This document shows positions 2,705 through 62,526 of a stretch of 64,000 bases of DNA, in pieces (the first letter of the stretch is position 1; every line of letters begins with the position of its first letter). Both the position numbers and the translations under genes were made by a program. The notes under the pieces were generated by a model, which made no database searches, had not been told where the DNA came from, and saw only the letters and a list, made by a program, of their open reading frames with translations. The DNA comes from a virus (lineage: Duplodnaviria > Caudoviricetes): the IMG/VR virus record IMGVR_UViG_3300044675_007236, one strand, 5' to 3'.

Positions 2705-3445
2705 CTATTGCGATATAAAAGGTGATAGGGCTTGTTCTTGATCTAGCAACTTTTGTATTTTCATTTTACGTTGAGTTATTGCCGCCGGAGTCCTATTCAG
2801 TGCTTTTGCGATGTCCAAGTTAGACATTTTTCGACGGTTATTCATACCCAGCGTCATTTCTAGAATTTGCTGGTCCGTAGGCTCCAGGTCTTGATACACA
2901 ATTTGTAACCATAGATCCTCAGCTCCCGTGTCACCAGGAAGCCTACCCGCTATACCGCCAGAGTTGGGGTCAAGGCTCTCGGCCTGACCTGTACTGAAAC
3001 CCGGCTGATACTTCCGAATCTTAGCAATTCTAGGGATAGATATTCGCATAAAGTCTGACAATTCTGCATCTGTGGGTTCTCGACCTATTTCGTCAGCAAG
3101 TTCTTGTGTTGCCGCTCTTAGCTTCTGACTCTCGAGTATCACCCGTTCAGGTGCGTTGATGACCTGCCCTTGCTGTCTGGATATTCGTCGCAAACCTTGC
3201 ATATTAGTTACGATATGCGATCGAAGTCTGGACCGCTTTGGATCGTACTTATTGGCAGCTTCCAAAGCCAGAAGCCGAGCCCTGCTGCGTAAAAGCGGGC
3301 TGTCGTTACCGTAAGCCTGCAAACCCTGGTTAATCACCGGGTCTATAGTCTTCAGAAAAGCTGCGTTGCCCTCCGGTGTTTTATTTGCTTGCCAGGTTTC
3401 ATAAGCTGGCCGAAACTCATCTTCTAAATAATCGGTTGGCATCAC
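2705..3445 (-). CDS. Sigma70-family RNA polymerase sigma factor (SigF/FliA-like architecture, divergent)
   Basis: Region 2-like EAANKYDPKRSRL, region 3 QELADEIGREPTDAELSDFMRIS, region 4 HTH LEPTDQQILEMTLG...SNLDIAKALNRTPAAITQ; start may be ATG at 3442. Confidence 0.8.
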   Translation of the reverse strand: MMPTDYLEDEFRPAYETWQANKTPEGNAAFLKTIDPVINQGLQAYGNDSPLLRSRARLLALEAANKYDPKRSRLRSHIVTNMQGLRRISRQQGQVINAPERVILESQKLRAATQELADEIGREPTDAELSDFMRISIPRIAKIRKYQPGFSTGQAESLDPNSGGIAGRLPGDTGAEDLWLQIVYQDLEPTDQQILEMTLGMNNRRKMSNLDIAKALNRTPAAITQRKMKIQKLLDQEQALSPFISQ

Positions 3446-3457
3446 GATAGTTTACTT

Positions 3458-5170
3458 CTACTTGTTTAAGGCTTTACGTTCGACTTCGGTAAGCGATTCA
3501 AAACCAGGGATAAGCGGAGCGTAATTAAAGTATTTTACACCATAAAAAGGGTGCGAAGACATCGAAAAGCGAGATAGTTTGTTTTCTTCGTCTGTTCGTA
3601 AGTTAGTTAAATTAAACGATGTTGTCGCACTTGCTTCTTGTGCGTTTATAGTGACGGTAACGCGATTTACAAAACCGTAAATGTCTGTGGCGAAATCGTC
3701 TATACCTGCAGTTTTAGTTGCAGTATCGGCTTTAATGATAACTGTGCTACCCGGAGCAATGTCAAAACGAAGCTTGCCTGTTATTGTTCCGCCGCGATCC
3801 TGTAACGCGTTTGCAGCGTAAATCATTTGAGCGTATTTGTTAGAAGCATCATTCCAGTTTACAACGTTATCTTCCGCTTTTTCGTCAACTGCTCGATTAT
3901 TACTACCTACCGCCGTATTTACTACCTGTGTAAGAAGTTTGTTTACACTTCCGTTACCGTTTACAGCCTTGATATCAAGTATTTCCGTAGCCGACAGCCA
4001 GTCTGGAGCAGGGACGAATAACCACATACCATCGACTACACCGTCTAAGCTTGCTGTGTAAGTACCGGCAACGCACTGTTTTTCGTTGATAGGTAGTGTA
4101 CCCATGTGTTGCTCATGCATAACGCCTACGCCGAAAAGAGGTCGCTGCGATCGAACTGAAAGGTTGATATCAGCAGTGTCTGATGTCCAAATAACGGCCC
4201 CGGCTTCTCTTGACATATCAAAAGCAGGTACAAGCAACGCCGAATTAGTTTGCGGAACTACAGCTAAGCCTATGTCGGTTATGAGCGATCCAATAAGCGC
4301 ATGCCACATGCTTGTACCAGCAAAAGATGCGTTTAGACGGCCACCAATGCTTTTCGCTAAGGCTGTTTTAGAGTCTAAGTCGACCTCAAAAGGATAGTCT
4401 CGAATGTACGCCGGTTTAGCCGCGGCTAAGTTCGAAAAACCCTTCCACTCCAGCACACCGTTTAAAGCCTGCAGAGCTCGAGTATTTGCAAGCAAATTAT
4501 CAACTAGTTGCGGTGGCGGCGAGCTGTCGCACCAGGCCGACGAGGCCTGTAACAAATTGTCTGACGATATTTTTGTTAGTACGTCGAGCAACGCTTTGGA
4601 CATGTCAAGAGTCATTGCAACCGGCAGACCGCTAATGTATCGGCTAGCTGCATCCATGTGGGTCTTACCTCCAGCACCTTCGTGCAAGATAGGAAGCATG
4701 AGATCGTGCGGCGCACCTGGTACCACATCTCGACTACCGCAGGAAGACAAAGCTAAATCGATCAAGGTGTTTGCAAAACTGAGCATCAAAGAAATGCTGC
4801 CGTTGTTTCTTCGATAAGAAACGCCGCTGACATAGCCGGTAAAAAGGATATGTTCACCAGCTGGAAATTGTTGTTTGGCTGAGCCTAAACCGCCAGTCGA
4901 CCAGTCGCCTAAGGCACCTACTAGCTTAACAACCACAGGTTCCATTTGCTTCAGTTCTTTAGCAACCTCGTAGACCGCAGACGGTTTACCAGTTCGTGCA
5001 TCTCTACCTAACGGTACAGCAGCAGTTGCCGTTGGAATAGAGTTTAGAGCGTAATTCATTGAAAAAGTAGCTAAGGGTAATTGAACGCCCGCGACTTCTG
5101 CTACGACTTTTCCGCCGCCGCTTTTACCGGATAAATCAACGACTGCGAACGTATTGGCTTTACCGCCCAT
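3458..5170 (-). CDS. Baseplate hub protein (T4 gp27 / Mu gp44-like)
   Basis: 570 aa beta-rich; ATFSMNYALNSIPTATAAV N-terminus, GGTITGKLRFDIAPGSTV C-terminal segment; position between tape measure and gp25-like genes. Confidence 0.55.
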   Translation of the reverse strand: MGGKANTFAVVDLSGKSGGGKVVAEVAGVQLPLATFSMNYALNSIPTATAAVPLGRDARTGKPSAVYEVAKELKQMEPVVVKLVGALGDWSTGGLGSAKQQFPAGEHILFTGYVSGVSYRRNNGSISLMLSFANTLIDLALSSCGSRDVVPGAPHDLMLPILHEGAGGKTHMDAASRYISGLPVAMTLDMSKALLDVLTKISSDNLLQASSAWCDSSPPPQLVDNLLANTRALQALNGVLEWKGFSNLAAAKPAYIRDYPFEVDLDSKTALAKSIGGRLNASFAGTSMWHALIGSLITDIGLAVVPQTNSALLVPAFDMSREAGAVIWTSDTADINLSVRSQRPLFGVGVMHEQHMGTLPINEKQCVAGTYTASLDGVVDGMWLFVPAPDWLSATEILDIKAVNGNGSVNKLLTQVVNTAVGSNNRAVDEKAEDNVVNWNDASNKYAQMIYAANALQDRGGTITGKLRFDIAPGSTVIIKADTATKTAGIDDFATDIYGFVNRVTVTINAQEASATTSFNLTNLRTDEENKLSRFSMSSHPFYGVKYFNYAPLIPGFESLTEVERKALNK

Positions 5171-61514: not shown

Positions 61515-61967
61515 TTATCGTTCTACGTAATCTTCAAGATCAGTGCTGGGTACGTCTTTGTCGTCCCATTGCATTTTTGACCTAGGCCCAACTGCCTTAG
61601 TCACTTGTCTGTAATCTGACACCAGCTCGTCGTCTTCTGCAATAGGCTTAACCGCAACTAGCTCAAATTTGTCATTGTCTTTACGTATTTCAACGTTGGC
61701 GTTTTGCTGGTGATTGCAGTAACGAGCAAGCGTCGTTAAGTTCCAAAGCTGGGAATCAAACTCGTCTTTATCCCCTTTAGACATTGCAAGCCCGATGCTT
61801 TCGCCGGGCTTGTAGTCTTTACCTGCAAACACGCCTTGCCCTGCGATTTCAGAAGTTGCAACATACCAACCTTGGCTTGCAGTCTTTACAAGGCTGTCTA
61901 CCGCCAACTTAAACGCGTCGGCAATCAAGTCTGATTCGGCAGGTAAACGTTGGTCAAGAAAGCTCAT
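61515..61967 (-). CDS. SET-domain protein lysine methyltransferase
   Basis: SEIAGQGVFA (GxG motif I), LARYCNH..NAN (motif III), AVKPIAEDDELVSDY (motif IV with Tyr); preceded by VKTAS. Confidence 0.8.
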   Translation of the reverse strand: MSFLDQRLPAESDLIADAFKLAVDSLVKTASQGWYVATSEIAGQGVFAGKDYKPGESIGLAMSKGDKDEFDSQLWNLTTLARYCNHQQNANVEIRKDNDKFELVAVKPIAEDDELVSDYRQVTKAVGPRSKMQWDDKDVPSTDLEDYVER

Positions 61968-61968
61968 G

Positions 61969-62526
61969 CTAATTAGGTCTTGTCCAATCGGGAAGCAAAC
62001 TAGGATTGATGTGCTCAGACTTACTTACTGCGTTTGACGCTAGCACACCGACTTTGCGGCAAGCTACTACAATCGAAAAATCAGATTGACCTTCGACTTT
62101 GTCAGGCAGCCCGTACGACTTTCGTAGCTTGGCTAGTTCTGGGGATTTTACACGTAGATGCCAACAAGTAGAAATGCCAGGCCAGCCTTTAGCCGGTGTT
62201 TCTTGCAGCTCGCCAAGCTGATAACGAAACGTCTTACCTCGCTCCGAGATTTTACTAGGTCCACCGATAGACTCAAGCTCGTCCGGAGTCATAACTACGA
62301 TGCCAGCTCTAATGCCATCTATTTCAGCCGGTAAAGTGATACCAGGTTCGTGCATTGCATCAAACACACCTCGCACCATGGCTGTCGGTACACTAAGCAA
62401 AAGATAGCCTAGCCCAGAAGCCTGTAGCAAGCCGCTCAGCTCAACAGTAGCTCGCTTTTCTGGCTCGTTGCCGTAAGTCCACAACAAGAAGTGCGATTCG
62501 TCGGGTAAACCGGTTACTGACAGCAT
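61969..62526 (-). CDS. 2H-phosphoesterase-like protein lacking catalytic histidines
   Basis: 185 aa; YLLLSVP, RAGIVVM, VKSPELAKLRKSYGL, DFSIVVA follow the spacing of phage 2H proteins but HxS/T motifs read GIV and SIV. Confidence 0.45.
   Translation of the reverse strand: MLSVTGLPDESHFLLWTYGNEPEKRATVELSGLLQASGLGYLLLSVPTAMVRGVFDAMHEPGITLPAEIDGIRAGIVVMTPDELESIGGPSKISERGKTFRYQLGELQETPAKGWPGISTCWHLRVKSPELAKLRKSYGLPDKVEGQSDFSIVVACRKVGVLASNAVSKSEHINPSLLPDWTRPN

Follow-up and report, generated by a model that had tools for sequence, protein, structure and literature searches.

A bacterial-type RNA polymerase with its own sigma factor is encoded alongside a predicted K-x-A head-protease system in the virion-gene module of a large freshwater phage

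The stretch of DNA studied here, 64,000 nucleotides of the IMG/VR virus record IMGVR_UViG_3300044675_007236 (in the following the window, by which the whole stretch is meant), encodes a multisubunit RNA polymerase (RNAP), a sigma70-like factor and a predicted head protease among the structural genes of a tailed phage. Such an arrangement raises the question of whether the polymerase travels in the virion and whether a short K-x-A motif marks the proteins that are injected with the DNA, as an earlier note on this sequence had proposed by analogy with the phiKZ-like phages. The identities of the genes, the modelled fold of the protease, the statistics and conservation of the motif, the co-inheritance of the parts and the fusion of certain domains to the polymerase are direct observations. 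We lean, with some confidence, towards a model in which a packaged, sigma-dependent RNAP stands beside a K-x-A protease system for head maturation. The two systems share the virion module and not a tag, the polymerase and sigma not being K-x-A substrates.

The window covers the late half, that of the virion genes, of a freshwater tailed phage of approximately 205 kb. The nearest public record, G001, is a complete viral genome of 204,794 bp with terminal repeats, the RNAP of which is 91% identical to that of the window. The parent clade is large and uncultured, its distant cultured members being Salmonella phage Arash and Vibrio phages D69, D148 and D181. Six related genomes, as whole sequences, were used in every comparative test. 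The genes of the transcription system and the baseplate gene next to which sigma lies are the following:

46715-51154, minus strand: RNAP beta fused to the catalytic N-half of beta-prime (g42, 1479 amino acids (aa)), from Pfam, PDB matches and motifs
41821-44931, minus strand: C-half of RNAP beta-prime, interrupted by an intein (g38, 1036 aa; extein about 654 aa), from Pfam and orthologues
42787-43932, minus strand: intein of g38 with a LAGLIDADG endonuclease, from alignment to intein-free orthologues and Pfam
2705-3445, minus strand: divergent sigma70-family factor (246 aa) among baseplate genes, from Pfam, PHROG, PDB and orthology to Arash Gp10
87-1754, minus strand: baseplate J

In a single frame, g42 passes from the beta domains Rpb2_3 and Rpb2_6 (the latter matched at 1.5e-46 in Pfam) into the beta-prime domains Rpb1_1 and Rpb1_2. 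The catalytic lysine motif of beta, GDKLSGRYGDKG, is intact at residues 793-804, and so is the metal-binding motif GADFDGD at residues 1385-1391. The best PDB matches were bacterial beta chains (4.5e-64) and bacterial beta-prime or cyanobacterial gamma chains (about 1e-43), and no phiKZ or AR9 chain was found among the best 60 of the 189 matches. At the junction, judged by eye, the end of beta runs into beta-prime near the GLF motif, and the Zn-ribbon of beta-prime seems to be missing there by comparison with what we take to be the E. coli sequence. The segment corresponding to the rifampicin-binding cluster (47900-48100, g42 residues about 355-445) is strongly diverged from the presumed reference motif, which is only a hint that the phage RNAP is possibly rifampicin-insensitive. 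The remainder of beta-prime is encoded by g38, in which Pfam reports Rpb1_5 together with LAGLIDADG_3 and Hint. Its orthologues without an intein are 612-654 aa long and lack the insert, which occupies residues 334-715 with Cys first, Asn last and Ser at +1 (C...SN followed by S). These domains and the two intact motifs bear out the earlier description of a re-partitioned multisubunit RNAP.

The alpha subunit (PF01000) gave no match in five near-complete relatives, and all 14 control genomes matched; host alpha may still be used by the phage RNAP. The catalytic part of beta-prime (Rpb1_2) is found at one locus per genome in five relatives. Judged by sequence, the enzyme of the clade is a single two-chain RNAP set of bacterial type, without a detectable alpha or second set. 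In the relatives G020, G021, G022, G023 and G032 the RNAP gene is matched in at least two separate pieces, with breaks near window residues 796-800 or 939-940 and gaps of about 0.4-2.3 kb, and Vibrio phage D181 has an annotated homing endonuclease at the corresponding place. This suggests that the breaks are insertions of mobile elements and not a natural boundary between beta and beta-prime.

The sigma70-like gene, too, had been rightly recognised in the earlier note. Pfam Sigma70_r3 matches it at 29.3 bits (cut-off 25.3), phrog_351 matches at 1e-9, and its best PDB matches are SigA chains. The phmmer alignment with SigA takes in regions 2 to 4 and reaches residue 374 of 390; the Pfam family Sigma70_r4 was not reported for it at E <= 0.01. 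By reciprocal tblastn and by position, the gene is orthologous to that of Arash Gp10, which adjoins a baseplate-J homologue. We infer that the phage sigma would work with the phage core enzyme. A 335-aa gene at 37310-38317, helix-turn-helix-like by eye, was considered as a second sigma or a small terminase and rejected for want of Pfam or PDB support.

The genes of this set keep company across the clade. With the RNAP as a seed, 27 related loci were found, and sigma is present in 17 of the 18 records that hold them. The protease described below, used as a seed, gave 235 confirmed viral contigs; all 80 that were retained share the order of the head genes, and in 62 of these the gene for the C-half of beta-prime or the RNAP gene lies at most 10 kb upstream of the head genes. 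Fourteen protease-seeded records, including ones without an RNAP in the 10-kb flank, were searched whole: RNAP was found in 13 and sigma in all 14. RNAP is present in each of the 11 protease-seeded records that are at least 90% complete. Joint inheritance of the polymerase, sigma and the head module extends over more than 30 uncultured genomes, each of 150-235 kb. RNAP, sigma, the protease and the K-x-A proteins occur together in every near-complete relative tested, and an independent distribution of these parts was not seen. The self-contained transcription system postulated earlier stands in this form: the lineage has its own sigma-containing apparatus of bacterial type, co-inherited with the protease and the K-x-A head proteins.

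Less came of the promoter. The earlier note had pointed to a non-canonical promoter motif, the 12-mer ACTTTGGCTATA, which occurs only twice in the window, at 21303-21314 and 58353-58364 (-), and contains an ordinary -10-like TATA(A/C)T hexamer (TATACT). Searched for with up to two mismatches in the six related genomes, its antisense matches are as numerous as its sense matches; the intergenically enriched k-mers do not include it, and the enrichment of intergenic 7-mers and 9-mers revealed no motif shared with the window. Two distant relatives have lineage-specific intergenic words of their own, (C)GTCATAAT in G006 and TG(T/A)TATATA in G014, which may serve these two phages as promoter elements of the -10 type. 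Consensus pairs of the sigma70 type occur in the window at chance level (22 versus 20.9). Two intergenic -35/-10 pairs of this type lie at 55874-55902, where a terminator (hairpin plus T-run) stands just upstream, and at 63238-63267. We regard the proposed promoter motif as unsupported.

What bears on packaging comes from the cultured relatives. By tblastn against 50,697 phage records, the fused polymerase was found in Arash (OQ632216.1), D69, D148 and D181, and matches to the protease of the clade were limited to the same four phages. Arash Gp206, the fused chain, is 30% identical to g42 over 96% of the query, and the genes of Arash follow the order RNAP, beta-prime C-half, helicase, Gp218, then protease Gp222 and capsid Gp226. 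In the published mass spectrometry coupled to liquid chromatography (LC-MS) of Arash particles (PMC10585845), Gp206 is the most-detected protein, with 3516 spectra, 128 unique peptides and 100% coverage. The same data hold Gp216 (beta-prime C-half) with 1210 spectra, sigma Gp10 with 467 spectra and 100% coverage, Gp218 with 1149 spectra, and all of Gp220-226 (PMC10585845). Complete peptide coverage of Gp206 and Gp10 means that these data give no sign of a removed propeptide (PMC10585845). The detection of both RNAP chains and sigma in these virions makes a packaged RNAP of the phiKZ kind plausible, and this much of the analogy drawn in the earlier note survives; the K-x-A tag on the polymerase does not (see below). 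For the phage of the window, the virion data of this relative make packaging of the RNAP plausible. Gene position and the one proteomics study of a distant relative leave packaging of the whole holoenzyme close to evenly balanced.

The second system centres on the protease. The head-module genes, and the low-complexity genes beside the RNAP gene, are listed here with the numbers of K-x-A sites and those expected from shuffles that preserve the composition of each protein:

28110-28520, minus strand: K-x-A-rich small head protein, 5 sites versus 1.6 expected, all five K-x-A-S/A
28874-29818, minus strand: major capsid protein, Atlas 0.97-0.98 to capsid clusters, 30% identity to the major capsid protein of Arash, Gp226
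30451-30879, minus strand: K-x-A-rich small head protein, 7 sites versus 1.3 expected
30910-32226, minus strand: Ala/Gly-rich scaffold-like protein, 15 sites versus 5.6 expected
32256-34880, minus strand: prohead protease (g32, 874 aa) with an assemblin/gp21 fold, a linker and a helical C-terminal domain, from an AlphaFold2 (AF2) model and fold searches; 21 sites versus 6.3 expected
33237-34376, minus strand: protease intein of the LAGLIDADG type, from six intein-free orthologues and Pfam LAGLIDADG_3
34893-36041, minus strand: Gly-zipper protein of the head module with no K-x-A excess; a single site, at residue 22, is fully conserved
36019-37326, minus strand: K-x-A-rich head-module protein, 14 sites versus 4.1 expected
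39005-41497, minus strand: large conserved virion protein of 830 aa, homologue of Arash Gp218, its N-terminal third K-x-A-rich
46080-46700, minus strand: Pro/Ala/Met/Gly low-complexity protein, next to the RNAP gene on its downstream side, without K-x-A enrichment
51161-52045, minus strand: Gly-zipper protein, next to the RNAP gene on its upstream side, without K-x-A enrichment

Among 1.84 billion representative proteins, a search turned up 2326 relatives of the protease. His103 and Ser166 are invariant in 96 homologues, in the His-then-Ser order of assemblin-fold proteases. An AF2 model of an orthologue, built from the 96-sequence alignment, reached a predicted local distance difference test score (pLDDT) of 87.7 (an input of six sequences gave only 38), and the top three Foldseek matches of this model are all T4 gp21. 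In the modelled orthologue, residues 242-269 form a low-confidence linker, into which the K-x-A sites at 250 and 265 fall, and the remainder is helical. According to the model, g32 is a protease of assemblin fold that is joined to a scaffold-like domain and has a putative catalytic Ser and His; the assemblin-type protease of the earlier note is upheld. The intein takes up residues 169-548 of g32 (380 residues), between VSMA and CRVP, with Cys at its start, His-Asn at its end and Cys at +1 (VSMA, then C...HN, then C), two residues past the putative nucleophile Ser; six orthologues of approximately 490 aa lack it. The same intein site seems to be widely occupied, as many homologues from the representative library have a length of about 870-900 aa.

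Judged against the composition-preserving shuffles, K-x-A is enriched in six proteins only, all of them encoded within 28110-41497. K.A ranks first among the 400 patterns of the form a.b in these six head proteins (75 occurrences versus 22.6 expected, p about 3e-18) and lies outside the six most enriched patterns in the remaining 53 proteins of the window. In the six relatives, down to 25-35% identity, the orthologues of the head proteins stand at or near the top of a proteome-wide K-x-A scan, and K.A is the top pattern in the Arash head module as well (44 versus 19.7 expected), with sites that resemble those of the window, e.g., LEKAAAV and MTKQASA. In five of the six proteins, the lysines of the motif are more conserved than other lysines. 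Over 397 sites, the neighbouring positions show preferences for Leu/Phe at P5, Glu/Ile/Val at P4, Ser/Ala at P1' and Asp at P2'. Ala at P1 with Ser at P1' agrees with the specificity of the herpesvirus protease of the same fold.

Single conserved sites, in addition, mark the edge between a variable leader and a conserved core in the capsid protein, at the start of the 830-aa protein and in a SET-domain protein described below; the one site of the Gly-zipper protein of 34893-36041 likewise lies at the edge of a variable N-terminal leader. The capsid protein has one K-Q-A, at residues 29-31, where its variable leader meets the conserved core, and the site is kept in five of five orthologues and in Arash (K-E-A). 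Conserved sites of the 830-aa protein lie at residues 5 and 144. This protein had been considered as the portal, an idea that was dropped when the homologue of the Arash portal mapped elsewhere in the genome, and an Atlas search with it gave no usable match. With Pfam and PHROG, the K-x-A-rich proteins gave intein matches only. Taken from these sequences, K-x-A is a probable protease cleavage code for the scaffold and internal head proteins and not a polymerase tag.

No excess was found in g42 (9 sites versus 8.4 expected), in g38 (7 versus 4.5) or in sigma (0), nor in the RNAP and sigma of the six relatives and of Arash. The earlier note, which had itself remarked that the RNAP is not obviously K-x-A-rich, was right on that point. 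Its wider proposal, a K-x-A tag that defines the injected proteome including the transcription proteins, finds no support in these counts, and of its dozen or so K-x-A-rich proteins the six of the head module remain, the others not being enriched over their shuffles. Among the latter are the Gly/Ala-rich proteins that flank the RNAP gene, with 1 site versus 1.8 expected (46080-46700) and 5 versus 3.3 (51161-52045).

Other features of these low-complexity proteins recur. The protein encoded at 46080-46700 and the scaffold-like protein of 30910-32226 share a PAAMGGG-type (Pro-Ala-Ala-Met-Gly-Gly-Gly) repeat that is conserved in relatives. A Gly-zipper followed by a basic patch (RKEK or RKRKR) recurs in several proteins that have no other relation to one another and are encoded close to the head and RNAP genes, namely at 34893-36041 and 51161-52045 in the window and at 58287-59672 and 61873-63333 in G001. 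Further K-x-A-rich proteins are encoded in G001 at 58287-64599 and 182513-183697, outside the part that corresponds to the window; one has K-x-A-Ala sites between a P-loop kinase-like and a ferritin/Dps-like domain, and another ends in DUF6321. These G001 proteins are better candidates for enzyme cargo released by the protease than any protein of the window.

Two further genes, upstream of the RNAP gene, had been counted among the K-x-A-rich cargo:

61515-61967, minus strand: SET-domain methyltransferase, PF00856 at 4.7e-8 and 33.8 bits (cut-off 22.4)
61969-62526, minus strand: 2H phosphoesterase-like protein lacking either HxT motif, PF22547 (2H-SAK) at 2.2e-5

Their domains are confirmed, including the loss of the HxT motifs, and their K-x-A-richness is not (2 sites versus 1.1 expected in the SET protein, 1 versus 0.6 in the 2H-like protein). 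The PF22547 match, at 25.1 bits, lies just below the cut-off of 27. The SET protein has a single K-T-A-S site between a variable 30-aa leader and its core. What links the two to the polymerase is a domain fusion. The RNAP frame of G008 is 2358 aa long (L098:11428-18501) and carries, between the N-terminus of beta and Rpb2_3, an insert of a SET, a HAD-like and a 2H domain, the last with both HxT motifs, with an intein further on; the position of the insert corresponds to approximately residue 245 of the fused chain of the window. G007, G010 and G012 likewise have the 2H part in their RNAP frames, accompanied or not by the HAD part. Elsewhere, 2H is a small gene of its own about 8-12 kb upstream of the RNAP gene, comparable to 61515-62526 in the window. 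The window protein has GIVV and SIVV at the positions of HITL and HITF in the fused copy of G008, and is probably a catalytically inactive relative with the 2H fold. Fusion into beta in a subclade points to SET and 2H proteins that work with the polymerase, and those encoded upstream, of SET and 2H type, probably serve it as accessory factors. The connection of these proteins to the system runs through the RNAP domain fusion and not through K-x-A.

In the model that we favour, RNAP and sigma would be made late, alongside the virion proteins. Copies of both would be packed in the particle, enter the cell with the DNA and start phage transcription, and newly made copies of the same enzyme would continue later transcription. 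The protease would most likely cut after Ala in (Leu/Phe)-(Glu/Ile/Val)-Lys-x-Ala followed by (Ser/Ala)-Asp, comparable to the cut of herpesvirus assemblin between Ala and Ser. It would trim the leader of the capsid protein, release itself from its own C-terminal domain and chop the scaffold and the internal head proteins. The K-x-A sites in the disordered linker behind the protease domain lie where a release cut would be expected. In a bolder and more tentative form, which we consider possible without leaning to it, the clade would pack and inject a complete bacterial-type holoenzyme, the first sigma-dependent virion RNAP; one alpha-less set would serve the whole infection, and the polymerase-attached SET, HAD and 2H enzymes would modify RNA ends or proteins.

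Several observations weigh against the favoured model, and most of them lend themselves to other explanations. The RNAP might not be a virion protein at all: host RNAP would read the early genes and the phage RNAP with its sigma the middle and late ones, and its detection in Arash would be carry-over of an abundant late protein. The Arash virion list comprises 116 proteins, among them ribonucleotide reductases, ligase and primase, and its authors themselves allow for carry-over of abundant infection proteins (PMC10585845), so that virion association of the RNAP is not secure. Arash is, moreover, only about 30% identical to the phage of the window. The two intergenic sigma70-type sites mean that host RNAP could transcribe part of the genome, and neither RNAP nor sigma has a K-x-A leader or another recognisable capsid-targeting feature. 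On the other hand, the replication enzymes in the Arash list are mostly represented by 2-3 unique peptides, and the fused chain, with its 128, heads the list above the major capsid protein (PMC10585845). From the lake phages through to Arash, the RNAP genes lie in the head block and sigma in the baseplate block, and each genome has only one polymerase set. We therefore regard a non-virion RNAP as unlikely, though a serious rival. Sigma might instead serve the host core RNAP, as in T4-like and other large phages that encode a sigma, with the phage RNAP initiating through another factor. Reviews describe phage sigmas that redirect host RNAP, and the polymerases of phiKZ and AR9 use initiation subunits unrelated to sigma. 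Region 2 of the sigma in the window is atypical: the aromatic residues of region 2.3 are replaced, and Pfam Sigma70_r2 (PF04542) finds no match to this sigma in five relatives. Yet sigma accompanies the RNAP in nearly all records searched for sigma (31 of 32 with sigma: 17 of 18 RNAP-seeded and 14 of 14 protease-seeded, the latter with the RNAP in 13 of 14), and the RNAP is of bacterial type and aligns with bacterial beta-prime and gamma chains over a region that, we assume, takes in the sigma-binding clamp helices. RNAP and sigma were, in addition, both detected in Arash particles (PMC10585845). A sigma devoted to the host enzyme thus appears improbable, more so than a non-virion RNAP. The co-inheritance itself, seen within one clade, may reflect only vertical descent.

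For the protease half of the model, the cleavage at K-x-A is predicted from statistical and comparative support, His103 and Ser166 are a putative catalytic pair, and Pfam, PHROG and PDB sequence and profile searches tie the protease to no named peptidase family. The profile of the 96-sequence alignment had no match among PDB sequences, and the leads of a language model from the protease to S77, S78 and S80 are weak. The K-x-A excess could then be a mere by-product of Lys/Ala-rich helical or low-complexity sequence; the enriched proteins are indeed rich in Ala and Lys and largely helical or disordered. Shuffles that preserve this composition nevertheless fail to reproduce the excess, and a by-product would not be expected to show the specific preferences at P1' (Ser/Ala), P2' (Asp), P4 (Glu) and P5 (Leu/Phe), lysines that outrank other lysines in conservation, or single sites where leader and core meet in globular proteins, the capsid protein among them. 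We consider this explanation the least probable of the three.

Among known systems, the phages closest to that of the window are Arash and the Vibrio phages, at about 25-40% identity. They share the fused beta with the N-half of beta-prime, the separate C-half, a sigma gene by baseplate J, the protease homologue, the K-x-A leader site of the capsid protein and K.A as top pattern of the head module. Arash differs in a second sigma (Gp196) and a helicase after the beta-prime C-half, both missing in the phage of the window, and in a portal gene that adjoins the RNAP gene. The polymerases of phiKZ and AR9 are likewise phage-encoded two-barrel multisubunit enzymes with a beta-prime divided into an N and a C part, without alpha and with genes among the late genes, and they are virion-associated, as is probable for the clade of the window. 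They come, however, in two sets (virion and non-virion) of 4-5 chains each, are very divergent from the cellular enzymes and use no sigma, whereas the present clade has one set of two chains with beta and the N-half of beta-prime fused, a clear bacterial-type sequence and a sigma70-family factor. Cyanobacterial and plastid rpoB, rpoC1 and rpoC2 split beta-prime at about the same place, the fused chain ending at approximately residue 550 of 624 of gamma, and beta is joined to the following gene product also in natural rpoBC fusions of the Helicobacter type. The window differs from both in its fusion of beta to the N-half only and in its lack of alpha. A cyanobacterial origin or host, prompted by cyanobacterial gamma and SigA among the best PDB matches, was considered and dropped because the scores barely differ from those of other bacteria and because a Salmonella phage has the same beta-prime split, which makes the split a feature of the clade and not an imprint of the host. 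Herpesvirus assemblin (MEROPS S21) and T4 gp21 (S77) have no family match to the protease at the sequence level. The motif of the present protease has Lys at P3 in place of a hydrophobic residue and Ala at P1 in place of the Glu of T4 and phiKZ, and the protease differs from both in a Cys-rich insert and, in the phage of the window, an intein beside the putative active-site Ser.

The rest of the window is that of a large tailed phage, marked by genes for baseplate J, a collagen-like fibre, glycosyltransferases, capsid, ribonucleotide reductase and RNAP. All of its 59 sizeable genes are on the minus strand, no transfer RNA genes were found in the window, and its GC content is about 46-50%. The collagen-repeat fibre gene (24979-26205) is flanked by GT2 and GT4 glycosyltransferase genes (21337-27456), and the ribonucleotide reductase encoded upstream of the RNAP block (56009-58348) has both an ATP cone and an insertion domain of the B12 type. 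An apparently intergenic gap at 60629-60874 is a GGC-TAC (Gly-Tyr) repeat directly 5' of a 94-aa open reading frame with 39% Gly (60629-61159), the true start of which is probably further upstream than called. In a comparison with assembled contigs of 2017 metatranscriptomes, contigs of four lake-water libraries match bits of 31500-51499 with zero differences, among them the scaffold-like gene and portions of the RNAP gene, with the most consistent coverage over the former. The same phage is present in these lake RNA libraries; the matches show its presence and not transcript starts or timing. One joint in these contigs was discarded as a low-complexity artefact.

According to reviews of 2021 and 2026, large phages have either their own multisubunit RNAP without a sigma, or a sigma without an RNAP. 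The present clade has both, unlike either group, and beyond the descriptive Arash paper (PMC10585845) we found no analysis of this architecture in the literature; in the available part of that paper, the RNAP architecture, the sigma partnership and the cleavage motif are not analysed. The clade occurs widely, in lakes and in other waters, and some of its members have been cultured on Salmonella and Vibrio; as Arash can be cultured, packaging is directly testable. Its polymerase is near enough to the bacterial enzyme for structures of bacterial RNAP to guide experiments, and the SET, HAD and 2H domains fused into beta point to a chemistry, as yet unexplored, that is coupled to the polymerase. 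The K-x-A code would let the processed head proteome be predicted in more than 100 uncultured genomes (235 viral contigs matched). If the holoenzyme is indeed packaged, it would represent a third kind of virion polymerase, a minimal alpha-less enzyme of bacterial type worth structural study.

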